Shown here in pieces: positions 179 through 40,628 of a stretch of DNA of 41,383 nt. A program made the translations under genes and the position numbers. The notes under the pieces were generated by a model. It did not search any database. It worked only from the letters and a program-made list of their open reading frames with translations, and was not told the DNA's origin. Positions within the stretch are counted from its first letter, which is position 1. Every line of letters begins with the position of its first letter. This DNA comes from Spirochaetia bacterium (lineage in GTDB: Bacteria; Spirochaetota; Leptospiria; Turneriellales; JAOUOS01): contig JAOUOS010000030.1 in assembly GCA_029880285.1 (NCBI GenBank), positions 1 to 41,383 of the forward strand, read 5' to 3'.

Positions 179-2968
179 ATGGGAACAAACAATTCTGAAA
201 CCGAAAAAGATAATAATAACAAAAACGCATGGTCAAATTCTATCATGCTGCCGAAAACAAATTTTCCCATGAAGGCAGATTTGGCCAAACGAGAACCTGA
301 TATTATTAAATATTGGGTTGATAATAAAATATACAACAGGGCCCTGGAAAAAAGAAAAAAAGAAAACGCGAAAAAATACATACTGCATGACGGGCCGCCT
401 TACGCGAACGGAAATTTTCATCTGGGCCACGCGTTAAATAAAACATTAAAAGATATTCACGTAAAATACAAATTATTAGACGGATATTACGCGCCTTATA
501 TTCCCGGGTGGGACTGTCACGGTCTTCCCATTGAATTGGCCGTAATGAAGAAACTGGCAAATAAAAAAGATAAATCTGATAAAGATCCCATTAAAGTAAG
601 AAAAGCATGCCGCGAATATGCTACTGATTTTATTAGAATTCAAGCGGAAGATCAAACCAGATTTGGTGTTTTTTGGGATAACAGCGAAGTAAAAAATTTA
701 TCAATAGAAAATCAGTTTGAGCCTGAAACTTTTTATTATACCATGAGTCCTATGTATGAGGCAAACATACTAAAAGTATTTAGAGAAATTTTTAATAAAG
801 AATTAATTTATAAAGGTGAAAGACCCATTCAATGGTGTCCATCGTGTGCTACAGCTCTGGCCGAGGCCGAAGTTGAATATAACGAGCATACCTCGCCTTC
901 TATTTATACTGCGTTTAAGGTAACAAACAAAGAAAACACATTTGTGGTCATATGGACAACAACCCCCTGGACACTGCCGGCTAATTTGGCATTAAGCTTT
1001 CACCCTGAATATAAGTATAATATTTATGAAACCGAAAAAGGAAATTTAATAATAGCCGAAGGGCTTGAAGAATCTTTTTTCGCGCAGACTGAACTTAAGT
1101 TTACAAAAAAAGAAGAAATTAAAAAAGAAGAAATAGAAAAATTAAAAGTAATACATCCGTTTATTGAAAGAGAAAGTAAAATACTATTTGGCGATCATGT
1201 TACACTTGAGGCGGGCACCGGTATTGTTCACACTGCTCCCGGACACGGGCAGGAAGACTACCAAATAGGAATAAAATACGGATTAAAACCGTTTTCGCCG
1301 GTTGATAACAGGGGCAGATTTACTGCTGATTTTGAATTAATGCAGGGCGAAAAAGTATTTAACGCCAATGAAAAGATAATTGAGCTTTTAAAAGAAAAAA
1401 AGGCTCTTTTAGGCGTTTCAGAAATTAAACATTCATACCCGCACTGCTGGCGATGCAGAGGGCCTTTGATTTTTAGAACAACACCCCAATGGTTTTTTTC
1501 AATAGAGCCTCTTCGTAAAAAAGCGCTGGAGTATACAGAAAAAGTAAAATGGATACCCGAATGGGGTAAGGCCCGTTTTTCATCGATGGTAGAAAACAGG
1601 CCAGACTGGTGTCTTTCGAGACAGCGCCATTGGGGCGTTCCCATACCGGCTTTTATCTGCGAAAACTGCGGCGAAACACATATAAATGAAGAATCATTAG
1701 ATTTTATTATTTCTCTGGTAGAAAAAAACGGAATAGAAGTATGGTTTGATAAAGAAACCAGCGAATTATTACCGGCGGGAACCAAATGTAAAAAATGTTC
1801 CCATGATAAATTTGAAAAAGAAAGAGATATTTTAGATGTATGGTTTGACAGCGGAATAAGCTGGTATGCCGTGTTAGAGAAATATAAAAAACTAGAAGTT
1901 CCCTGTGACATGTATCTTGAAGGTTCTGATCAGCATAGAGGATGGTTTCAAAGTAGTATGTGGCCGGCATTAGCCGTAAAGGGAGAAGCCCCCTATGAAA
2001 CCGTATTAACGCATGGTTATGTTTTGGATGAAAATGGCAGGGCGATGAGTAAATCTCTTGGCAATGTTATATCACCCGTGGATGATATAATACCTAAATA
2101 CGGCGCGGATATGGTAAGACTTTGGGTTGCTTCTGAAGATTATAGAACAGATAATAAAATTAGTTTTGATATGCTGGTAAGACTTTCTGACAGTTATAGA
2201 AAAATTCGAAACACTTTTAGATATATGTTGGGTAACTTAAAAGATGGTGAGGCAGTTAAGAATCTAAAAGATTCAGATATAACAGATGATATTGATAAAT
2301 GGGTTTTACATGAACTTGCCGATCTGGGAGAAAAAATAAAAAAAGCCTATGACTTAAGCGAGTTTCATCAGGTATATCACAGAACTTTGCAGTTTTGCAC
2401 GGTAACCCTTTCAAATACTTATTTTGATATTATACGCGACAGGCTTTACTGTGATGACGCGCCCAATTTAATAAAAAGCGTAAAAAGAAAATCATCATTA
2501 AAAACTCTTCAGGTTTTATTAGAACATTTAACTGTTTGGCTGGCACCTGTTTTAAGTTTTACAATGGAAGAAATTCAAAAATTTGTTGATGATTCAATCA
2601 GTATTTTTGAAAAAAACTGGCCTGACGCGTCAAAATATAAAAATGAAAAGTTAAAAGAAAAATTTAATCCTGTGTGGGAACTAAAAGAAAGCGTAAATAT
2701 AAAACTTGAAGATGCCAGAAAATCTCAAAAAATTGGTTCTTCTGTTGATGCTGTTGTTGTTATACCAAATGAAAAACTAAAAAATATTTCAAATGAAGTT
2801 AAAGAAAGTTTAGATTTTTATCTTGTAGTTTCTGAAGCAAGGTTTGAAGATGTATCTGAAATACAAATAGAAAAATCTGCGAAAGAAAAATGTCCCAGAT
2901 GCTGGCTTTACCGCGACTTAACCCCCAAAGGCGTATGTGAAAGATGTCAAGATGTTACAGCTGAATAA
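179..2968 (+). CDS. ileS: isoleucine--tRNA ligase (class I aaRS)
   Basis: The ORF is 929 aa. It has the HIGH motif 'PPYANGNFHLGHALNK', a KMSKS motif 'AMSKSLGNV', the N-terminal 'LPKTNFPMKADLAKREPDIIKYW' typical of IleS, and a C-terminal Zn-finger 'CPRCW...CERC'. The start is not certain: ATG 179 gives a short N-terminal extension compared with E. coli IleS. Confidence 0.95.
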   Translation: MGTNNSETEKDNNNKNAWSNSIMLPKTNFPMKADLAKREPDIIKYWVDNKIYNRALEKRKKENAKKYILHDGPPYANGNFHLGHALNKTLKDIHVKYKLLDGYYAPYIPGWDCHGLPIELAVMKKLANKKDKSDKDPIKVRKACREYATDFIRIQAEDQTRFGVFWDNSEVKNLSIENQFEPETFYYTMSPMYEANILKVFREIFNKELIYKGERPIQWCPSCATALAEAEVEYNEHTSPSIYTAFKVTNKENTFVVIWTTTPWTLPANLALSFHPEYKYNIYETEKGNLIIAEGLEESFFAQTELKFTKKEEIKKEEIEKLKVIHPFIERESKILFGDHVTLEAGTGIVHTAPGHGQEDYQIGIKYGLKPFSPVDNRGRFTADFELMQGEKVFNANEKIIELLKEKKALLGVSEIKHSYPHCWRCRGPLIFRTTPQWFFSIEPLRKKALEYTEKVKWIPEWGKARFSSMVENRPDWCLSRQRHWGVPIPAFICENCGETHINEESLDFIISLVEKNGIEVWFDKETSELLPAGTKCKKCSHDKFEKERDILDVWFDSGISWYAVLEKYKKLEVPCDMYLEGSDQHRGWFQSSMWPALAVKGEAPYETVLTHGYVLDENGRAMSKSLGNVISPVDDIIPKYGADMVRLWVASEDYRTDNKISFDMLVRLSDSYRKIRNTFRYMLGNLKDGEAVKNLKDSDITDDIDKWVLHELADLGEKIKKAYDLSEFHQVYHRTLQFCTVTLSNTYFDIIRDRLYCDDAPNLIKSVKRKSSLKTLQVLLEHLTVWLAPVLSFTMEEIQKFVDDSISIFEKNWPDASKYKNEKLKEKFNPVWELKESVNIKLEDARKSQKIGSSVDAVVVIPNEKLKNISNEVKESLDFYLVVSEARFEDVSEIQIEKSAKEKCPRCWLYRDLTPKGVCERCQDVTAE

Positions 2969-2971
2969 AAT

Positions 2972-4408
2972 TTAATTTAAACTGCTGTAAGAAGAATAAG
3001 GTAAAATAATTTCTAAAGATTCTTTTTTATGGTCACTTGTTAGTTTAAGTGAGCCCTTAAAAACAAAAATGATTTCTTTTATTTCGTTTAAGTATAATTC
3101 CATTTCTTTTTTTTGAAGAATATGATTAATACTGGAATCTTTATTCATAAAGTTTATTAAAACCTGATTTCTTTCTGTAATAATAGAAATTTTTAATATT
3201 TTATTATTTAATAAATGAAATATGTTATTAAGAGCAATTTTAAGAATTTTAATAATTTCAGAAGCTAGAATATTTTCAATAAACAGCAAACTTGTGTTAA
3301 AAAATAAATCACATCTGTTCTTTGTATTTTTTTCATAATCAGCGGCTATATTTTCAATAAATGTTTTTAGACTAAAATTTTCAAGCTGGTTTAATTCCAG
3401 ATTTTTTGTTATTTTTCGAATGCTTTGAATGGCAGAATTTAATAAGTTTTTTGATTCAATTATATTTTCTGGATTTAAAGTATTTTCTACTTTTTGAATT
3501 TCATCGTTTAGTTTTTCAATATCAAAGTTAATTAAAGACATAATTTGATTTAAATCATCCTGAATATTAATGGCTATTTTTTTTCTTTCCTGCTGGCGCG
3601 CGGTTTGATAATTTCTTGCCATTTGTTTAAGTTCTCTTCTTCTTTGTATAAGTTCTTTTTGAGCGTTGTGACGGCGGCTAATATTTTGAATTAGTGAAGC
3701 GATTCCAATAATGTTATTTTTCTCATCAAATAAGGGCACATTGTACCATTCACATTGAATGAAGTTTTTGCTTTTTGTAATGTTTTTATCTGTGCTTCTT
3801 AATTCACATTTTTCTTTCAGTATTTTATTAAAAAATTTATTTATTAAACTTTCGTTTATATTTGAAATTTTTGACAATGCTTTTTGGTTTATCATTTCTT
3901 CTTGGGTATATTCAAAAATATTTTCAGCCGCTTTGTTCCACCGTGTTACCTCTAAATTCAAGTTCCACTCGATAATAGCCATGGGAATATTATCAACATG
4001 AAATTGAAGTTTTTGAGCATGTTCAATTAGTGCTTTTATCCCTTTTTTTTCTCTTGTTATATCGCGGCATATTTCAATTGAGCCCGCTAATTCATTATTG
4101 TTTATAATAAAGGGATAGCCTTTAATCTCCCATATATTATTATCAGATGTTATAATTTCGCCCTGTTTTTGAGAAAGATTCTCTTTTGCCTCAATAGCAG
4201 GGCAGAATAAGCAAAAGCTGTCTCTTTGAAAAAGTATCTTATAACACTTTTGACCTATTGCCGAATCACGGTTTACTTTAAAAGAATTTTGAGCGCCTTT
4301 GTTCATCCAAATAATATTCATCTTTAAATCATGGCAAATTATAGGATCAGAAATACTGTCAAGTATATGAAAATAATCTATTTTAATGTCATTTAAATGA
4401 TTATGCAT
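2972..4408 (-). CDS. PAS-domain sensor protein with a degenerate HisKA_3/HATPase-like C-terminus (probable pseudo-histidine kinase)
   Basis: The ORF is 478 aa. The N-terminal ~250 aa have two PAS-like segments ('ICHDLKMNIIWMNKGAQ', 'IPMAIIEWNLNLEVTRWNKAAENIFEYTQEEM'). The C-terminal ~220 aa follow the NarX/DesK-type (HisKA_3) layout, but the kinase motifs are altered. 'ERKKIAINIQDDLNQ' sits where 'ERxRIARELHDxxGQ' is expected, so the phospho-acceptor His is Gln. 'KIALNNIFHLL' resembles an N-box. No DxGxG (G1) or GxGL (G2) box is present. The C-terminal 'GSLKLTSDHKKESLEIILP' matches the end of an HATPase domain. Confidence 0.6.
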   Translation of the reverse strand: MHNHLNDIKIDYFHILDSISDPIICHDLKMNIIWMNKGAQNSFKVNRDSAIGQKCYKILFQRDSFCLFCPAIEAKENLSQKQGEIITSDNNIWEIKGYPFIINNNELAGSIEICRDITREKKGIKALIEHAQKLQFHVDNIPMAIIEWNLNLEVTRWNKAAENIFEYTQEEMINQKALSKISNINESLINKFFNKILKEKCELRSTDKNITKSKNFIQCEWYNVPLFDEKNNIIGIASLIQNISRRHNAQKELIQRRRELKQMARNYQTARQQERKKIAINIQDDLNQIMSLINFDIEKLNDEIQKVENTLNPENIIESKNLLNSAIQSIRKITKNLELNQLENFSLKTFIENIAADYEKNTKNRCDLFFNTSLLFIENILASEIIKILKIALNNIFHLLNNKILKISIITERNQVLINFMNKDSSINHILQKKEMELYLNEIKEIIFVFKGSLKLTSDHKKESLEIILPYSSYSSLN

Positions 4409-16141: not shown

Positions 16142-17824
16142 ATGCCAGATTTCAAAAATTTATTTGAAAGTATTAAAGAAACATTTAATAAGTTAGAGAC
16201 AACGCAAAAAATAATTGCTGGTGCCGTTTTAGGCACTGTTGTTGTGGCTTTGGTGTTAGTGGCGACTGTTTCATCAAAAGAAAGCAGGGTTGCCTTGTTT
16301 GAAGGCATCAGTACAAAAGAATTCGCAGAAGTAACCGCGAAACTTGAAGAATTGAACTATTCGTTTACAACTTCAGGTACAGAGGGAGTGTTTGTTTCAG
16401 CTGATAAACGTGATGAAATCATGATGAAGCTGGCGCAGGAAGGCATGATTCCCAAAGGTGTTGCCGGCTGGGAGCTTTTTGACATAGATAAGTGGTCAGA
16501 AACCCAGTTTGAAAAAGATATAAAAAAACAAAGAGCCCTAATGGGCGCTATCTCAAAAACATTATCTACTTTAAAATCTGTAAGTGAAGCGACAGTTAAT
16601 ATTGCTTTTCCCGAAGAAGCGTTGTTTGAAGAAAGATTAGAACCCGCAAGCGCTGCTGTTTTACTGAAATACACTCCGGGGGTAGATAAACTCACAAGAA
16701 GAGAAATAGAAGGGATTGTTACTTTAGTGAGCCGTTCTGTTCCGGGATTAAAAAAAGAAAATGTGTCTATCGCTGGCCCAGATGGTGAAATATTGAATGA
16801 TTATGACAATGAAATAGACAAAGAAAAGTGGGAGCTAAAAGCAATTTCAGAGAGACTGAAAATACAAGAAAAAGAAAGGGTTAAGCTATTAACTGATATA
16901 AAAAATTCATTAAATTCTTTTTATGGTAATGATAGAGCTGATATTGTAAGGCTTGAGATAAAAATGCGATGGGATAAAGAAGAAATTGAAAAAACAGAAG
17001 TTGAACCTGTTGTAATGATACCAGATGATCCGAAAACTCCCTATTCTGAACTTCAGGTCAAAGACTCTCTTGAAGTTTCTTCAAAAGTAACATCAGAAAA
17101 GTTTGAAGGTAATGGATTTACTCCAGAGGGTCCGGCCGGAACAGAGCCAAATATCCCTCCCGGTTATAAAGATAAAGATTATCAAAAAGCAAGATACGAA
17201 AAAACAGAAAATATAAAAAATAATGAATTTAATAAAACAAAAAGAAAAATTGATAAACAACCATGGGAAGTAGAGAAAGTAAATTTAGCGGTTATACTTG
17301 ACGGCAGGTGGGAAAATGCAGGTGAAAAGGAAGATGAATCTGGATATAAAAGAAAATATGTATCTGTGAGTGATGATGAGCTAAGAAATGTTCAAGATTC
17401 TCTAAAAAAAGCAATTGGGTTTGATTTGTCTAGAGGCGATCAAATTTCTGTAAAACATATTCAAAAAGATCGTTCGAAAGAGCATGAAAAAGAAGATGCG
17501 GCTCTTAGAAAAAGTAAGATGATAAGAAGACTTCTTTTGGTAGGCTTAATTTCATTTTTAGTAATATTTTTAGCGTTTGCTGTTTATCACGGCATAAAGC
17601 GTGAGATGGAAAAACGACGACGATTAAGAGAAGAGGAACTAGCCGCGCAGCAGCAAATGATGCGAGAAGCCGCGTTACGAGCTATTGAAGAAGAAGGTGT
17701 AGAGGTCGAAATGTCTCTTGAAGAAAGAGCAAGAAAAGAAATGCTTGAAAATGCGATTAATTTGGCCAAAGAAAGACCTGAAGACGTGGCCCAACTATTA
17801 AGAACATGGCTGGCAGAAGAATAA
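16142..17824 (+). CDS. fliF: flagellar M-ring protein FliF
   Basis: The ORF is 560 aa. It has N- and C-terminal TM helices, FliF ring-building motifs, and a charged C-terminal tail that would bind FliG. A GAGG RBS is present. Confidence 0.9.
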   Translation: MPDFKNLFESIKETFNKLETTQKIIAGAVLGTVVVALVLVATVSSKESRVALFEGISTKEFAEVTAKLEELNYSFTTSGTEGVFVSADKRDEIMMKLAQEGMIPKGVAGWELFDIDKWSETQFEKDIKKQRALMGAISKTLSTLKSVSEATVNIAFPEEALFEERLEPASAAVLLKYTPGVDKLTRREIEGIVTLVSRSVPGLKKENVSIAGPDGEILNDYDNEIDKEKWELKAISERLKIQEKERVKLLTDIKNSLNSFYGNDRADIVRLEIKMRWDKEEIEKTEVEPVVMIPDDPKTPYSELQVKDSLEVSSKVTSEKFEGNGFTPEGPAGTEPNIPPGYKDKDYQKARYEKTENIKNNEFNKTKRKIDKQPWEVEKVNLAVILDGRWENAGEKEDESGYKRKYVSVSDDELRNVQDSLKKAIGFDLSRGDQISVKHIQKDRSKEHEKEDAALRKSKMIRRLLLVGLISFLVIFLAFAVYHGIKREMEKRRRLREEELAAQQQMMREAALRAIEEEGVEVEMSLEERARKEMLENAINLAKERPEDVAQLLRTWLAEE

Positions 17825-22623: not shown

Positions 22624-24501
22624 ATGAACAATGATTTTTTAAAAAAAGCATCTGCTAATTTAAATTATCTTGAAAAAGAAAATTGTTTGTATTATGACAC
22701 AAATTATGATATCAAAAATAAAATTATAAATATAAAATCATTTTCTGGGAATATTGAAAATGAAAATCATTTTACTTTTCAAAAAAATAATGTATGGTAT
22801 CACTCAAGAAAAGACCCCTATAGAGAAGCAAAGAGGCAGTTGCATGGTATAATTGATAAAAATAAAAATACAAAGCATTTAATATTAATAGGCGCTGGTG
22901 CCGGATATATAATACATGAGGCATTTTTAAATAATGATATAGAATCAATACTTTTAATAGAACCAGATTTAGAAGTGCTGGTATACTTATTAAATTTAGT
23001 AATTATTCAAGAAATAATTAAAGAAAAAAAATTATATATATATTTTCCTGAGAACATAAATATTATAAATTTAGAACCCATATTACCTTTTATTAAAGGC
23101 AAAAAAGTGGAAACTATATCAATTTTTACTCATCCAGCATCTTATCAGGCTTATTCAAGTTTATATACAAAAGTACAAGATAAGATGGCCAATTTAATTG
23201 AAAAAAGAGCCGTAAATCAGGCAACTTTAATTAAATTTCAAGATATATGGAACAAAAATATAAGTTTAAATATTAAAGAAATAATTTTAGGCGAAAAATT
23301 AATAAACATAACGAGTAAAATCAAAACAGAAAATATTGTAATCGCCGGGGCGGGTCCATCATTGTCTGAAAGTTATGAAGAGTTAAAAAAATATAGAAGT
23401 AATTTTTTATTAATAGCAGCAGATACGGCTTATATTCCATTAATTAAAAATAATATTATTCCTGATATTGTTATAGCCGCTGATCCTCAGTGGTTAAATC
23501 ATTATTATGTATTATCAAAAGAAGTAAAAAAGTCAATTTGGATATTAGATCCGGTTGTTTGTCATGTGATACCTCATTTTCTAATAGCCAATGGGTGTAC
23601 GATGATATGGTGGGATAATCCATTTTATATAGATCAAATAATAAGAAATCATTATGGCGATAGAGGTGAAATTGCACACGGAGGTTCAGTAACAACAAAT
23701 GCCTTTGATTTAGCGGTTAAATTTAAGGCAAGAAATATTATATTAACGGGACAAGATCTATCTTTTTCTAATAAAACCGCCCATGTAAAAGGATCCGTTC
23801 TTGAAAATATGATATATTATAAAATGAATAAATATAAAACAATAGAAAATCATAATTTAAAGCAGATGAAGGCCTTACCGGCATTAAAGGTAACATCAAT
23901 AAAAGATAATAATATTTTTACAAACGCTAAATTAAAGGTTTTTATTGAATGGTTTGAAAATCAAGCAAAAATATATAATAGCGGGGACAATATAATAAAT
24001 TTATATAACGCCACAAAAAATGGTGTTAAATTAAAGGGTTTTATTTATAAAGATATATCTGAGATATTTACAAATGATAATGAAAGATTAAAAGTAAATT
24101 TAGATATAAATAAAGAAAATGTAATACATGAAAATTTAGAATTGAAAATAAAAAATAAATTAGAATTAATATTATTTGATTTTAATATGCTTGAAAAATT
24201 ATATATTGAAAATATAAAAATGTTATTTGAAGCAAAAAGAAATCCTGTAAAAGAAAAGATAAAATCTTTAATTTCTAAAATAACAGCTAATGATGAAAAA
24301 ATAAAAAAATATAACGAGGCCAACCAGATACTTTCTATAGGGGCTCAGCATACAATTCTTGAAATTACAGAGGGATCCAATTCTGCTTTTAATGATGATG
24401 GCACCATTTTTTATAAGGCAATGCTTAAAACTTGTAAAAGAACAAGATATTTATTTAAAAAAATGATTCATATATTATCATTTATGCATGTTCCAGGTTA
24501 A
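22624..24501 (+). CDS. Maf-like motility accessory factor (DUF115 / MptE-like domain); putative flagellin nonulosonic-acid glycosyltransferase
   Basis: The ORF is 625 aa, which is the usual Maf size. Its central 'NIVIAGAGPSLSESYEELKKYRSNFLLIAADTAYIPLIKNNIIPDIVIAADPQ' matches the DUF115 G-x-GPSL...PD...D signature. It lies directly downstream of the flagellar block. Confidence 0.6.
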   Translation: MNNDFLKKASANLNYLEKENCLYYDTNYDIKNKIINIKSFSGNIENENHFTFQKNNVWYHSRKDPYREAKRQLHGIIDKNKNTKHLILIGAGAGYIIHEAFLNNDIESILLIEPDLEVLVYLLNLVIIQEIIKEKKLYIYFPENINIINLEPILPFIKGKKVETISIFTHPASYQAYSSLYTKVQDKMANLIEKRAVNQATLIKFQDIWNKNISLNIKEIILGEKLINITSKIKTENIVIAGAGPSLSESYEELKKYRSNFLLIAADTAYIPLIKNNIIPDIVIAADPQWLNHYYVLSKEVKKSIWILDPVVCHVIPHFLIANGCTMIWWDNPFYIDQIIRNHYGDRGEIAHGGSVTTNAFDLAVKFKARNIILTGQDLSFSNKTAHVKGSVLENMIYYKMNKYKTIENHNLKQMKALPALKVTSIKDNNIFTNAKLKVFIEWFENQAKIYNSGDNIINLYNATKNGVKLKGFIYKDISEIFTNDNERLKVNLDINKENVIHENLELKIKNKLELILFDFNMLEKLYIENIKMLFEAKRNPVKEKIKSLISKITANDEKIKKYNEANQILSIGAQHTILEITEGSNSAFNDDGTIFYKAMLKTCKRTRYLFKKMIHILSFMHVPG

Positions 24502-36807: not shown

Positions 36808-36895
36808 GTCGTCGAAAAGCGTTTTTGTAAGCTGGACAAGCGAAGCTGGTCGAAGGCGGCGCGAATTAACCTCAATGGTTATGCGAAATGGCGTT
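36808..36895. repeat. GC-rich island with 14-nt tandem near-duplication (aagctggacaagcg / aagctggtcgaagg)
   Basis: Read from the sequence. It lies between the convergent GIY-YIG and DUF4236 genes. Its composition is sharply different from the AT-rich flanks. Confidence 0.5.
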
Positions 36896-38175
36896 TAAGA
36901 TAATTTCTGACCTATAACTTTATTCAATACTGTAAAGGTTTCAATTATATTTGGTGTTGACAAATAAATAGGTTTGGTTTTATTAAAAATTATTAATTCG
37001 ATTATACCATCTTCTTCCTCAAGATAATTATTTTCTAAAATACTTTCAATCTTTATAGTTGAATGACCCGTAGTGACAAGCTGTATTGTATTTGCAGTAA
37101 TAAAAAAATTACCTTCTTTGTCTAATGATAATTGTCTGAATTTATTTTTTATACCATTTTGTGTAAATGACTTTATAATTTTACTTTTAAGTATTCGAAC
37201 TTTATTTTCATAATAACATTTATCAGATTCTTTAATATTATTCATACTTGGACTAATCGATTTTAATGGTGAGGTAGCGATTTTTCTAATAGAACTATAT
37301 TGTTCAATAATGTGATAATATTTTGTCTGATCTGATTTTGGAATATCAAAAATATTTAAGCATGTTTTAAGAAAATGTTCTTCACTTTCATCGAGATATT
37401 TATCATCGATAAAAATTGATAATAAATTATTAATATATACAATATTAATAGATTCCCAAGTTTCTTTTGGTAAATTGTTTTTTATTTGACTAATTAAAGC
37501 TTTTTCAGAGTCATCAATAATCATGTCCTCAATAATATTAGGTATTAGTTTTGAGTATATTATTGAATAGATATATGATTTAAGCGATTTATCTTTTTTA
37601 GATTTATTATTGAGTTGCTCAATTAAATTTAAAAATTCATTATGTTTATTTTCTATAATTACGTTTTCCATTTTTTGAATGTATCTTTTTGCCTGATATT
37701 TCCTAATATATTTTGTGGGTAAATTGATGATAAAAATTAAAAAAAATATAAAACTCAATTCTGGAATATTACCTATTGCTGAAAAAATAAAAAAACCAAG
37801 AGAAAACCAAAAAGTAAATATATAGCGATAGGTGCTATTTAATTCAAATTTACCTAATTCTATGTTTTTCAACGTTAAATGATGATCATATTTATCTGTT
37901 GATTCAACGTTATGTTCTAAGCTTTGTTTAACTGAAAATGTGTCTACAGAATTAGAATTGAGGTTTGATGATAAACTTTCATTAAAATATAAACCATGTC
38001 TGCCACCTGCCACATAACTTTTACCACGACTGTCCATACCTAGCTTGAGACCTTTTATGCCAGCCGAAATGCCTATACCACTCTTAGAAAGATTGAATCT
38101 AACTGGACCCATTTTAAGAGATTTTCTCAAAAACTTACTCATTTTATAAAACCTTGAACATGTTGCATAAAACAT
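36895..38175 (-). CDS. DUF4236-domain membrane protein with TerB-like and PH-like C-terminal regions (hypothetical)
   Basis: The ORF is 426 aa. 'KSLKMGPVRFNLSKSGIGISAGIKGLKLG' matches the DUF4236 N-terminal signature. It has two TM helices (~aa 118-155). Two acidic repeats, 'IIEDMIIDDSEKALISQI' and 'IDDKYLDESEEHFLKTCL', are TerB-like. The C-terminal ~90 aa is a beta-rich segment. Confidence 0.5.
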   Translation of the reverse strand: MFYATCSRFYKMSKFLRKSLKMGPVRFNLSKSGIGISAGIKGLKLGMDSRGKSYVAGGRHGLYFNESLSSNLNSNSVDTFSVKQSLEHNVESTDKYDHHLTLKNIELGKFELNSTYRYIFTFWFSLGFFIFSAIGNIPELSFIFFLIFIINLPTKYIRKYQAKRYIQKMENVIIENKHNEFLNLIEQLNNKSKKDKSLKSYIYSIIYSKLIPNIIEDMIIDDSEKALISQIKNNLPKETWESINIVYINNLLSIFIDDKYLDESEEHFLKTCLNIFDIPKSDQTKYYHIIEQYSSIRKIATSPLKSISPSMNNIKESDKCYYENKVRILKSKIIKSFTQNGIKNKFRQLSLDKEGNFFITANTIQLVTTGHSTIKIESILENNYLEEEDGIIELIIFNKTKPIYLSTPNIIETFTVLNKVIGQKLS

Positions 38176-38357: not shown

Positions 38358-39782
38358 ATGAGAAAATTCTTATCTGATTTATTTGAAAATAATAATTCAA
38401 AAAGGAAAATATTTTTTGACATATTTATTAATATTTTAATTTTAATATCAGTCTATACTATTATACAAGAATATATTTATGAAAATGAAAATGAATTATT
38501 CATAATTGCAAATGATGTTTTTTTCTATATATTTGTTTTAGAATATTTTATCAGGTTATGGCTGTGTACAACGTTTATAAAAGATTATAAAGATGAAGGA
38601 TTGTCGTATGCAATAATTAATAAAATAAAATGGATTTTAAAACCGAATAGTATAATAGATTTACTTGCAATTTTACCGGATATACGCTATTTAAGATTAT
38701 TCAGAATATTTCGATTAATAAGAATTCTTCGTATCGTTCGATTATTTCGGTCTGTTCATGTCCAATCTGCAGTTGAAAGAGGCTTTTTAATATTGAGAAG
38801 TTTTCGAGAAACTACAATGCTATTTTTTTTACTATTTTTTTTCGTCTTTAGTGCACTAATTATAATTTCACTTTTCATTTATGCTTCTGAAACGAAAATT
38901 AATAAAGAGTTTTCAACTTTTTTGGATTCCATATTATACTCTTTTCAATTGGTAGATATAGTTGACGATTTACCAAAAACAGGTTGGGGAAAGCTCGGAA
39001 GTTCTTTATTGTTATTAGTTAATATGGTATTTTTTGGTATTTTTATTTCATTAATCACAACAAATGTCGAGGAGGTATTAGATAGGATGAAAAAAGGAAA
39101 ACTAGGAAAGGTAAATTATAAAAATCATATTATTCTCTGTGGATTTACTAAGTCAACAGAGGCAGTAATTAAAGAACTTTTATGTAATAAAAAGAAAAAA
39201 CCAAAAATTATTCTTATTAGTAGAAAACAAAATCCTGATATTACGGGAGTGATTTATATGAATGGTGATTTTAGCAAAATGGAGACATTGAAAAAAGCTA
39301 ATATATCTCAAGCAGCTATGGTTGTCGTTTTTACGGAAAAATTAGATGATGAAACTTATGAAGTCGTTGATATGAGAACGATGCTAACTATTTTTAATGT
39401 AGAGAAAGAAGTTCCAGAGGTACATACTGTAGCAGAAATTATTGAAACTGAAAATGGTGATATCATAAGAGAAAAAATTAAAGGCGATGAATTAATATTT
39501 AAAGAAACATTGGATGGTAATTTAATTGCTAGTTGCGTTAAACATCCTTATATCTCATCAATGATATATGATTTATTAGATACAAAAGGAAATTCAATTA
39601 AAGAATACAAAGCGATTGAATTATTAAATGCTAAAATAAAAACGGTTAAAGACATAAAAATGTATGCAATTGAAAATAATATTACATTCTTGGGATTTAT
39701 TGATGAATATAAAAAATCAAATATTAATCCTGACAATAATTTAATATTTTCTGGAAATGAAAGATTGATATTTATATGTTAA
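38358..39782 (+). CDS. voltage-sensor (6TM) ion channel with C-terminal RCK/TrkA-N domain and non-canonical selectivity filter
   Basis: The S4 helix reads 'RYLRLFRIFRLIRILRIVRLFR', with Arg at every third position. The pore loop is 'YSFQLVDIVDDLPKTGWGKLGSS', where K+ channels have 'TVGYGDMVPVTIGGKIVGS'. The RCK Rossmann sequence is 'HIILCGFTKSTEAVIKEL...ILIS...GDFSKMETLKKANISQAAMVVV'. Confidence 0.65.
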   Translation: MRKFLSDLFENNNSKRKIFFDIFINILILISVYTIIQEYIYENENELFIIANDVFFYIFVLEYFIRLWLCTTFIKDYKDEGLSYAIINKIKWILKPNSIIDLLAILPDIRYLRLFRIFRLIRILRIVRLFRSVHVQSAVERGFLILRSFRETTMLFFLLFFFVFSALIIISLFIYASETKINKEFSTFLDSILYSFQLVDIVDDLPKTGWGKLGSSLLLLVNMVFFGIFISLITTNVEEVLDRMKKGKLGKVNYKNHIILCGFTKSTEAVIKELLCNKKKKPKIILISRKQNPDITGVIYMNGDFSKMETLKKANISQAAMVVVFTEKLDDETYEVVDMRTMLTIFNVEKEVPEVHTVAEIIETENGDIIREKIKGDELIFKETLDGNLIASCVKHPYISSMIYDLLDTKGNSIKEYKAIELLNAKIKTVKDIKMYAIENNITFLGFIDEYKKSNINPDNNLIFSGNERLIFIC

Positions 39783-40156: not shown

Positions 40157-40372
40157 ATGAGTGTAGCAGCACAGAAAATTATAGAAGAATTAGACGAATT
40201 ATCTACAGAAGATAAAGAATATGTGAAAGAAGTCTTTGATAAAATGCTAATTGAAGCAAGGCGCGAAGAAATCTATCAGAATATTCAATTAAGCGAACAA
40301 GAATACAAAGAAAGAAAAACAAAAAGTTTTGATAACGCAAATGACTTAATGAGTTCTCTAAATGAAGATTGA
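40157..40372 (+). CDS. type II antitoxin (small acidic helical protein, 'addiction module component'-like)
   Basis: The ORF is 71 aa. It overlaps the downstream RelE/ParE ORF by 11 nt. 'IIEELDELSTEDKEYVKEVFDKML' resembles the short antitoxins that pair with RelE/ParE toxins. Confidence 0.6.
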   Translation: MSVAAQKIIEELDELSTEDKEYVKEVFDKMLIEARREEIYQNIQLSEQEYKERKTKSFDNANDLMSSLNED

Positions 40373-40628
40373 TTATAGCAGCACCTTTAAAAAAGCATAT
40401 AAAAAAAGAACATCTAATCATCCTCAGCTAAAAAATCGTTTTAAAGAAAAAATGGCTCTATTTTATTCTAACCCATGGCACCCTGCTCTAAAAACACATA
40501 AGTTAGTGGGCAAACTAAAAAACTCTTACAGTTTTTCTGTCGATTATGATTGTAGGATTGTTTTTAAATTTATTTCAGATGACCATATTCTTTTAATTGA
40601 TATTGGCAAGCACGACGAAGTATATTAA
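40362..40628 (+). CDS. RelE/ParE-family type II toxin (mRNA interferase fold)
   Basis: The ORF is 88 aa. 'FKKAYKKRTSNHPQLKNRFKEKMALFYSNPWHPALKTHKLVGKLKNSYSFSVDYDCRIVFKFISDDHILLIDIGKHDEVY' matches the RelE/ParE consensus (...LxGxLxgxxsxRvGdYRiif...lxigHRkdvY). Confidence 0.85.
   Translation: MKIDYSSTFKKAYKKRTSNHPQLKNRFKEKMALFYSNPWHPALKTHKLVGKLKNSYSFSVDYDCRIVFKFISDDHILLIDIGKHDEVY

Follow-up and report, generated by a model that had tools for sequence, protein, structure and literature searches.

A spirochaetal voltage-sensor/RCK channel gene with a shortened pore helix and no GYG filter

The window analyzed here is a stretch of 41,383 nucleotides from a Spirochaetia bacterium (assembly GCA_029880285.1, contig JAOUOS010000030.1). 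At 38358..39782 on its + strand lies a gene for a putative ion channel subunit of 474 amino acids, in which a voltage sensor, a pore resembling that of potassium channels and an RCK domain follow one another. The GYG filter motif of K+ channels is absent from the pore, where the aligned segment reads L-V-D-I-V-D-D. A first-pass annotation, drawn from the DNA letters and a list of open reading frames (ORFs), had given the ORF its exact limits. It had also recognized the three-part architecture, which the Arg array of S4, matches to K+ channels in the PDB and Pfam matches to RCK models bear out.

Organization of the channel gene

The features of the gene are as follows (residue numbers refer to the protein; the clade and its canonical sisters are described in the next section).

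38358..39782, + strand: channel subunit gene, complete ORF of 474 amino acids plus stop, ATG start (database homologues; purifying selection in orthologues)
38406..38753, + strand: voltage-sensor domain S1-S4, residues 17-132 (predicted helices; S2 motif aligned to KCNQ2)
38685..38750, + strand: S4 gating-charge array, eight Arg from R110 to R131 (read from the sequence)
38763..38810, + strand: S4-S5 linker, predicted helical, residues 136-151 (DSSP helix 136-151 in an AlphaFold2 model)
38814..38891, + strand: S5, residues 153-178 (sequence and helices of the AlphaFold2 model)
38919..38948, + strand: pore helix, residues 188-197, three residues shorter than in canonical relatives (alignments, gap after S195; model helix 188-197)
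38949..38969, + strand: filter-equivalent segment L198-V199-D200-I201-V202-D203-D204, aligned on T-V-G-Y-G-D-x (phmmer and profile register)
38970..38993, + strand: post-filter scaffold L-P206-K-T208-G-W-G211-K212, retained from K+ channels (clade and canonical-sister alignments)
38982..39095, + strand: S6 inner helix, residues 209-246 (clade and sister alignments)
39021-39023, + strand: N222 at the gating-hinge Gly position (invariant, 21/21 clade representatives)
39048-39050, + strand: S231 at the lower S6 Gly position (20/21 clade representatives)
39117..39779, + strand: single RCK domain, MthK/Slo-like, residues 254-474 (Pfam, Foldseek, RCK sequence match)

Public databases contain an identical protein, MDH5718310.1, named "MAG: ion transporter [Spirochaetia bacterium]" (MAG, metagenome-assembled genome) and encoded on a 266-kb contig. 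A 474-codon ORF in DNA of 25% GC (guanine plus cytosine), with homologues reaching E 6e-210 in the database search, is far beyond chance. Used alone as a phmmer query against all PDB chains, the protein finds KCNQ2 (E 1.6e-10 over residues 24-232), along with Shaker, Kv1.2 and MthK. A profile of the clade reaches E 4.7e-19 with KCNQ2, and among the 60 best of its 262 matches at E<=10 those that cover the pore are all K+ channels. By these alignments, S1-S6 is significantly similar to members of the voltage-gated cation channel superfamily with six transmembrane segments (6TM). The homology of the pore was established by PDB searches and profiles because Pfam and NCBIfam gave no match to Ion_trans (PF00520) or Ion_trans_2 at E<=1 for the window protein; its relatives carry precomputed PF00520 matches. 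Of the two Pfam models that the first-pass annotation had singled out for comparison, TrkA_N was found (34.4 bits, cut-off 23.8) and Ion_trans was not. The Kch equivalog NF007828 scored 31.7 bits against a cut-off of 425, and only residues 195-413 were matched.

Arg occupies positions 110, 113, 116, 119, 122, 125, 128 and 131 in S4 (residues 108-134); the spacing of three had been seen at first pass, with the number put at seven instead of eight. The charge-transfer-center residues F59-x-x-E62 (S2) and D101 (S3) do not vary among 18 relatives, and phmmer aligns F59 and E62 with the KCNQ2 S2 motif F-G-V-E. Both marks of the superfamily are thus present, a basic residue at every third S4 position and the acidic and aromatic charge-transfer residues of S2 and S3. 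In an AlphaFold2 monomer model, with a mean predicted local distance difference test score (pLDDT) of 77, S1-S6 and the RCK fold are predicted, the S4-S5 linker is helical and the pore helix comprises 10 residues (188-197). The best structural matches of this model by Foldseek are MthK (E 1.6e-14), Slo1 (4e-13) and Slo2.2. The best S1-S6 sequence matches, KCNQ/Kv7 and Kv1/Shaker, share the S2 F-x-x-E, the S4 Arg repeat and the long helical S4-S5 linker, the last as judged from the model. They differ in being eukaryotic, in having no RCK domain and in their TIGYG filters and PAG or PVP hinge.

Residues 254-372 match Slo-like_RCK (PF22614; 42.6 bits, cut-off 24) as well as TrkA_N. The fold of the RCK domain matches gating-ring chains of MthK and Slo, and MthK is also its best sequence match. 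The GxGxxG dinucleotide motif of the nucleotide-regulated KTN subtype is not found: the residues in question are L-C261-G262-F-T-K-S, with at most one of the three Gly. The motif is likewise missing from MthK, with which the protein shares CG[WF]xxS (C-G-W-S-E-S in MthK). MthK residues D184, E210 and E212, the ligands of its Ca2+ site 1, align to F325, E360 and I362; with E360 alone kept, this site is not conserved. As in MthK, Slo1 (BK) and Slo2.2, a pore of K+ channel fold is followed directly by RCK; as in BK, a voltage sensor would be combined with RCK gating. MthK, however, has no voltage sensor and keeps the D184 and E212 ligands, BK has two RCK domains per subunit where a single one is found here, and both have TVGYG and the hinge Gly.

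Nearly all clade members keep a Met in the S6-RCK linker (I-M-[DE]-x-I/M), only a few residues away from where M107 lies in MthK; the window protein has L241 in that column and a Met at 244 (39087..39089). In MthK, M107 is the internal start yielding the soluble RCK needed for the eight-RCK gating ring.

The pore and the subfamily that shares it

Two alignments give the same register for the filter. phmmer pairs Q-L-V-D-I-V-D of the query with T-T-I-G-Y-G-D of KCNQ2, with a three-residue gap in the pore helix. hhalign, comparing 16 clade members with 16 canonical sister channels, yields 484 collinear columns (probability 100%) and places F196-Q197-L198-V199-D200-I201-V202-D203-D204 on l-T-T-V-G-Y-G-D-i, with the gap after S195. 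These results confirm where the first-pass annotation had put the filter and the loss of GYG that it reported. They agree as well with its claim of a retained post-filter scaffold: P206, T208, G211 and K212 are conserved in the clade, and the Pro and Gly are invariant in the canonical sisters too. The annotation had allowed that a canonical GYG or TxExW filter might lie elsewhere in the protein. A motif scan of the whole window protein detected no G[YFLM]G, T.G.G or T.[ED].W, the hhalign register agrees with this, and no Gly occurs between residues 142 and 209. Thus, L-V-D-I-V stands where the K+-selective signature T-x-G-[YFL]-G is expected, and N222 stands in the column of the inner-helix hinge Gly, about 20 residues after the filter. 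Of the 92 canonical pore domains, 75 have Gly in that column; the 21 clade members all have Asn. Because both filter Gly and the Thr are absent, the four-site K+ filter cannot form, and since it cannot, selectivity for K+ has very probably been lost; by this argument from the alignments, the window channel is very probably not K+-selective.

The first database search returned five close relatives only (P0002-P0006, 37-67% identity), all of them without GYG and with the three-residue gap in the pore helix. When 1.84 billion representatives were searched exhaustively with a profile, 155 proteins were found at E<=1e-30. The pore region was aligned for the best 150 relatives, whose pore domains fall into three groups: 92 are canonical (T[VI]GYGD), 42 are non-GxG with a full-length pore helix, and the remainder form the clade, counted as 21 representatives at 50% identity. 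Three features co-occur in these 21 and nowhere else among the 150 relatives: the pore helix shorter by three residues, the hinge Asn (N222, 21/21) and the lower-S6 Ser (S231, 20/21). None of the three had been noticed at first pass, though it is they that distinguish the subfamily. I230 and G211 are, like S231, nearly invariant in the clade, and 21 residues are invariant across 16 full-length members, some of which are only 27% identical to the window protein.

The window protein and 13 genome-derived orthologues carry the features of the subfamily, including the want of a strict TxGYG. These orthologues, all intact, came from a scan of one genome per species: seven are from Aquimarina, three from Treponema (two of these with a GTG start), two from MAGs of Flavobacteriaceae and one from a MAG of Bacteroidales. 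A second Bacteroidales MAG and one Spirochaetota MAG gave partial matches. The Kch-type 6TM-RCK channels (NF007828, Escherichia coli Kch) and the sister channels P0007, P0008, P0096 and P0100 have the same domain order, are collinear over the 484 columns and share the S2/S3 charge-transfer residues as well as the RCK core motifs H257, C261-G262 and D304. Features of the sisters that the clade lacks altogether are T[VI]GYGD, the full-length pore helix, the hinge Gly and the lower Gly. Taken together, these comparisons delineate a coherent, uncharacterized 6TM-RCK subfamily of Spirochaetota and Bacteroidota, which by its alignments descends from K+ channels. No description of 6TM-RCK channels with this pore was found in the open-access literature or bioRxiv.

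The filter positions of the 21 clade representatives are occupied as follows.

Position 200 (first Gly of GYGD): G in 11, K in 3, N in 3, D in 2, E in 2
Position 202 (second Gly of GYGD): G in 6, V in 6, A in 5, others
Position 203 (D of GYG-D): D in 14, E in 3
Position 204 (next after GYGD): D in 11, E in 3

The first-pass annotation had read the filter as an acidic D-I-V-D-D, suggestive of selectivity for cations (possibly Ca2+ or Na+) other than K+. Acidity as the principle on which this filter is built is not supported: D203 is the ordinary inherited aspartate of GYG-D, with no novelty to it, and D200 is not conserved. The nearest relative, P0002 (67% identity), has Lys at position 200, in the segment LIKVVEN. 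Variation of this residue among G, E, D, N and K across the clade argues against a conserved ion-coordinating role for D200. The switches were placed on a neighbor-joining tree (custom distance, bootstrap) built from all columns except the P-loop. Because deep nodes of the clade are unresolved in this tree, the count of independent Gly losses rests on the well-supported sister pairs only:

Window versus P0002: VDIVDD versus IKVVEN (bootstrap 100)
P0085/L010 versus Flavobacteriaceae: IGFG versus ELx (bootstrap 100)
P0004 versus P0082: IGLAED versus VELADD (bootstrap 97)
P0084 versus P0006: LDFATD versus LNFATD (bootstrap 100)

Acidic residues have taken the place of the Gly at position 200 on at least three or four occasions, and Lys has done so on two or three. 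Within lineages the segment is stable: the Flavobacteriaceae orthologues all keep [TI][IV]-E-L-(V/L/M/I)-D-[DT]-T-P and the Treponema orthologues keep I-G-[LF]-x-D.

Constraint on the pore was assessed in two ways. The canonical sisters have their most conserved segment in the filter, where mean column entropy is 0.93, the value over the full protein being 2.17. The filter of the clade (1.98) is conserved no better than the average of the protein (1.79), the best conserved parts being S3, S4, S6 and the N-lobe of RCK. The constraint of a K+-type filter thus appears relaxed in the clade, although the clade is the less diverse set overall (1.79 versus 2.17). Nei-Gojobori dN/dS (nonsynonymous over synonymous divergence) between orthologues is 0.08-0.16 gene-wide; for the P-loop (residues 186-212) it is 0.04-0.09 in four of five Flavobacteriaceae pairs and 0.07 in one Treponema pair. 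Between the window gene and its nearest relative dS is saturated, so that dN/dS is not directly estimable for the window gene itself. By these measures, the divergence of the filter is not decay: the P-loop is conserved within lineages and divergent between them, a pattern that fits a functional P-loop doing different things in different lineages.

A local departure from this pattern is found in Treponema pedis. Its orthologue is intact in several strains (e.g., AGT43512.1/WP_020964812.1, named "BK channel" in UniRef) and broken in other assemblies, by a CAA-to-TAA nonsense change at codon 198 (L023, 2501-3979), an A8-to-A7 frameshift at nucleotide 882 (L022, 1667-3144), further frameshifts near residues 107 and 258, and a replaced N-terminus (the set, lesions included, comprises proteins P0231, P0233 and P0238-P0244). 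The nonsense change is no homopolymer artifact. The lesions are independent and lie at different sites, which suggests that the gene was lost repeatedly; phase variation at poly-A tracts is another possibility. The concern, raised at first pass, that the ORF might be a frameshifted pseudogene in related genomes is therefore justified for T. pedis; neither the window gene nor any of the other 13 orthologues, which are intact, is affected by it.

The 42 non-GxG pore domains outside the clade mostly carry an A-G-E-P ("AGEP") filter, e.g., TLMAGEPIYGEP, reminiscent of the T-I-G-E-T-P of CNG channels. The proteins in question (among them P0129, P0144, P0153, P0155, P0159, P0163, P0166, P0186 and P0210) are mostly 6TM-RCK channels with a full-length pore helix and both S6 Gly kept, and the group appears uncharacterized. 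The first-pass annotation had called a 6TM-RCK channel with an acidic filter unusual. This holds with respect to characterized channels and fails among the relatives, given these 42 other domains without GxG. Four long relatives, P0117 (1493 aa), P0141 (1748 aa), P0142 and P0229 (1491 aa), contain three or four tandem 6TM repeats (aa, amino acids). P0117 and P0141 have four, with a GYG-type filter in each, while P0229 has four differing non-GYG P-loops, G-EYPLI, LLNLTGE, GDFPL and LGGEWGV.

Genomic context

The channel gene stands alone; four homologue neighborhoods share nothing, and no conserved partner gene adjoins the channel in the loci compared (four or more). The flanking features in the window are these.

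36895..38175, - strand: divergent neighbor upstream of the channel gene, 426 amino acids, N-terminal DUF4236 (domain search, E 2e-12)
40157..40628, + strand: two overlapping small ORFs of 71 and 88 amino acids, directly downstream of the channel gene

The second of the two small ORFs encodes a YafQ-family type II toxin (E 6e-9) and the first, of 71 amino acids, presumably its antitoxin. The DUF4236 protein weakly matches BnzA, a candidate defense protein of PADLOC (E 4.5e-5). A small DUF4236-like ORF lies 2 kb from the channel homologue in locus L004. In the same locus (1175-3688), directly upstream of homologue P0005, Peptidase_C14 (caspase-like), TIR_2 and DUF6804 genes are found in an arrangement typical of defense islands, and neighbors of this type were not seen at other channel loci. 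The TIR and caspase-like genes near one homologue and the DUF4236 neighbor in two loci had raised the idea of a role in defense. This was rejected: PADLOC has no match to the channel, the neighborhoods are unrelated, and a tblastn search detected the DUF4236 neighbor at none of the other 20 loci (best E 0.25).

The GC content of the window is very low (25-37%), and cumulative GC skew rises steadily along it. A scan for promoters and terminators gave 19 matches versus 18.5 expected, a background level in AT-rich DNA, and no tRNA genes or Rfam matches at gathering threshold were found in the window. Genes for FliF (16142..17824) and a Maf/MptE-like protein (22624..24501) are consistent with a spirochete chromosome. 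FliF points to a flagellated spirochete; tRNA synthetase, glycine-cleavage and radical-SAM genes lie on the same chromosome.

Permeation through the pore and its significance

From the architecture, the alignment register, the signatures of the subfamily and the purifying selection described above, we infer that the protein forms tetramers and conducts. That it is a functional cation channel without K+ selectivity is, on this evidence, the reading to which we incline, with moderate confidence. The protein would be a subunit of a tetrameric channel whose gate responds both to membrane voltage and to the cytoplasmic RCK domain. Depolarization would move the eight-Arg S4 and, together with binding of a ligand to the RCK ring, open the S6 bundle. 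The P-loop, shortened by one turn (three residues) and free of Gly, would form a shorter or wider filter unable to select K+, and D200, D203 and D204, which give each subunit three carboxylates close to the outer mouth, would let cations through, possibly with a preference for Na+ or divalents. Cation flux with little preference for K+ would thus be the most likely consequence of the short P-loop and of these residues.

Non-GYG channels of K+ channel fold are well known, NaK, CNG, HCN, KtrB and CASTOR being examples. In NaK and CNG, an acidic residue replaces part of GYG, which shortens the filter and leads to the permeation of cations without selectivity or of Ca2+. They provide further analogies for the present pore; however, the Thr, the first Gly and the full-length pore helix are kept in NaK (TVGDG) and CNG (TIGET), and all three are lost here. 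The NaK filter sequence is given in PMC9822992. The experimental precedent comes from CASTOR, a Ca2+-selective RCK-gated pore without TVGYG whose filter Asp is essential, the change D265N abolishing the current (PMC6697748). CASTOR, POLLUX and DMI1 resemble the window channel in having an RCK-gated K+-channel-like pore with a filter Asp in place of TVGYG. They differ in being eukaryotic, with four transmembrane segments, no S1-S4 sensor, a tandem RCK-like soluble domain and the filter ADS(A)GNHA versus LVDIVDD. Their RCK similarity to the window channel is weak (E 4.7e-4), and the resemblance is one of functional analogy, not of family membership.

Several observations weigh against a functional, non-K+-selective cation channel. 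The Ion_trans models fail to match the protein, and the lowest confidence of the AlphaFold2 model falls exactly at the filter, with coil at 198-208 and pLDDT below 50 at 200-202. The D200 column varies throughout the clade and is Lys in the closest relative. Inactivation in several assemblies implies that the channel is dispensable, at least in T. pedis. Finally, no functional data for any subfamily member were found in the open-access or bioRxiv literature.

The alternative that fares best, though we think it rather unlikely, ascribes to the pore an acidic ring of four D200 backed by D203 and D204, acting as a high-field-strength site selective for Ca2+ or Na+, as in CavAb and BacNav or in CASTOR. 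Three carboxylates within five residues at the filter position agree with it, as does the essential Asp of CASTOR. In addition, at least three other lineages acquired an acidic residue at position 200 on their own (Glu in Flavobacteriaceae and in P0082, Asp in P0084), and [TI][IV]EL-x-D[DT] is kept under strong purifying selection in Flavobacteriaceae. BacNav, CavAb and CavMr are homotetrameric 6TM voltage-gated channels that owe their selectivity to a carboxylate ring, and the T-[IV]-E of Flavobacteriaceae is formally like the filter T-L-E of NavAb and other BacNavs, a resemblance that we regard as analogy only. Against such a ring speak Lys at position 200 in the nearest relative (67% identity, bootstrap 100), Gly in half of the clade and Asn in others, the ordinary GYG-D nature of D203, and the low model confidence at 200-202. 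The pore is homologous to those of K+ channels, not of BacNav or Cav, and lacks the TxExW Trp and any signature of a second pore helix. Kinship with BacNav or Cav was in fact rejected: there is no T.[ED].W motif, BacNavs are without RCK, no BacNav chain appears among the 60 best of the 262 clade-profile matches, where the pore is covered by K+ channels, and PDB matches to the T-type Ca2+ channel (Cav3) cover the voltage sensor only (residues 17-170). Selectivity for Ca2+ or Na+ is a possibility for the window protein and for the Glu-type Flavobacteriaceae lineage, as far as their filter sequences go, rather than a demonstrated property of the family.

Less probable still is a pore that does not conduct, the protein being a voltage or ligand sensor whose pore serves as a tetramerization scaffold, or else a "silent" subunit active only when combined with another channel subunit. 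The relaxed filter of the clade (entropy 1.98 versus 1.79, the opposite of the canonical sisters) could be taken in this sense, as could the absence of both S6 gating Gly of K+ channels and the Lys ring of P0002, P0088 and P0091, odd for a cation pore. Yet, within lineages, purifying selection on the P-loop and S6 is as strong as or stronger than on the rest of the gene, and an invariant N222 with nearly invariant S231, I230 and G211 fits a working permeation and gating pathway. Furthermore, Pfam detects no other output domain in the protein, and no conserved partner gene adjoins it. That the protein is still a K+-selective channel or uptake pathway, with a minimal filter like that of KtrB and TrkH with a single Gly per P-loop, seems very improbable. 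In its favor, the first Gly survives in about half of the clade (xIG[FL]x), P0085, P0104, P0086 and P0126 have GFG, GLG or GYG, and KtrAB selects K+ despite a non-canonical filter (PMC6888753). Against this, the window protein has neither Gly nor the Thr in L-V-D-I-V, and the deletion in the pore helix alters the geometry of the P-loop. A decaying remnant with a drifted filter can practically be dismissed: the T. pedis breaks and a window-P0002 dN higher in the P-loop than gene-wide (0.33 versus 0.25) are outweighed by a full-length window ORF with all domains present, by 13 intact orthologues with dN/dS about 0.1, and by the 21 invariant residues, retained down to 27% identity.

Thus far the protein was known only as an automatic annotation in databases, and another non-GYG channel of K+ channel fold is no great surprise. 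What is new, on the strength of the alignments, is the signature of the subfamily (pore-helix deletion, Asn hinge, Ser) together with the repeated switching of a filter residue among G, E, D, K and N under purifying selection. A bolder proposal, which we put forward with considerable doubt, is that in this subfamily selectivity filters may have radiated naturally while the voltage-sensor/RCK scaffold stayed fixed, the first-Gly position switching repeatedly and independently to Glu or Asp, Lys or Asn and each state being held by purifying selection. If the states of position 200 did encode different selectivities, they would amount to bacterial voltage-gated channels of undescribed kinds. One kind would be carboxylate-ring Ca2+/Na+ channels that arose from a K+ pore, separately from BacNav; Lys-ring channels, selective for anions or for other ions, might be another. 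Extant members would then trace, stage by stage (GYG to GFG/GLG to G-only to E/D), a route from a K+ filter to a carboxylate-ring filter. Goulbourne and Greenberg are said to have proposed in the 1980s that changes of membrane potential carry chemotactic signals along the spirochete cell; a spirochete channel of the switched-filter type could, in that case, bear on their proposal.

It is customary to regard bacterial 6TM-RCK channels as K+ channels, and the database labels of proteins of the window type read "ion transporter" or even "BK channel"; the filter should be checked before "potassium channel" is transferred to RCK-containing 6TM proteins. The voltage-sensor/RCK chassis is also used with pores that are very probably not K+-selective, and change is concentrated at the key filter position, where Gly, acidic, basic and amide residues have replaced one another on an otherwise fixed protein. 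Members of the subfamily are small, presumably homotetrameric candidates for new prokaryotic Ca2+- or Na+-permeable channels under the control of voltage and ligand. The subfamily as a whole may be viewed as a natural experiment, on how ion selectivity is encoded and evolves on the K+ channel fold and on how a pore may be gated without either S6 Gly.

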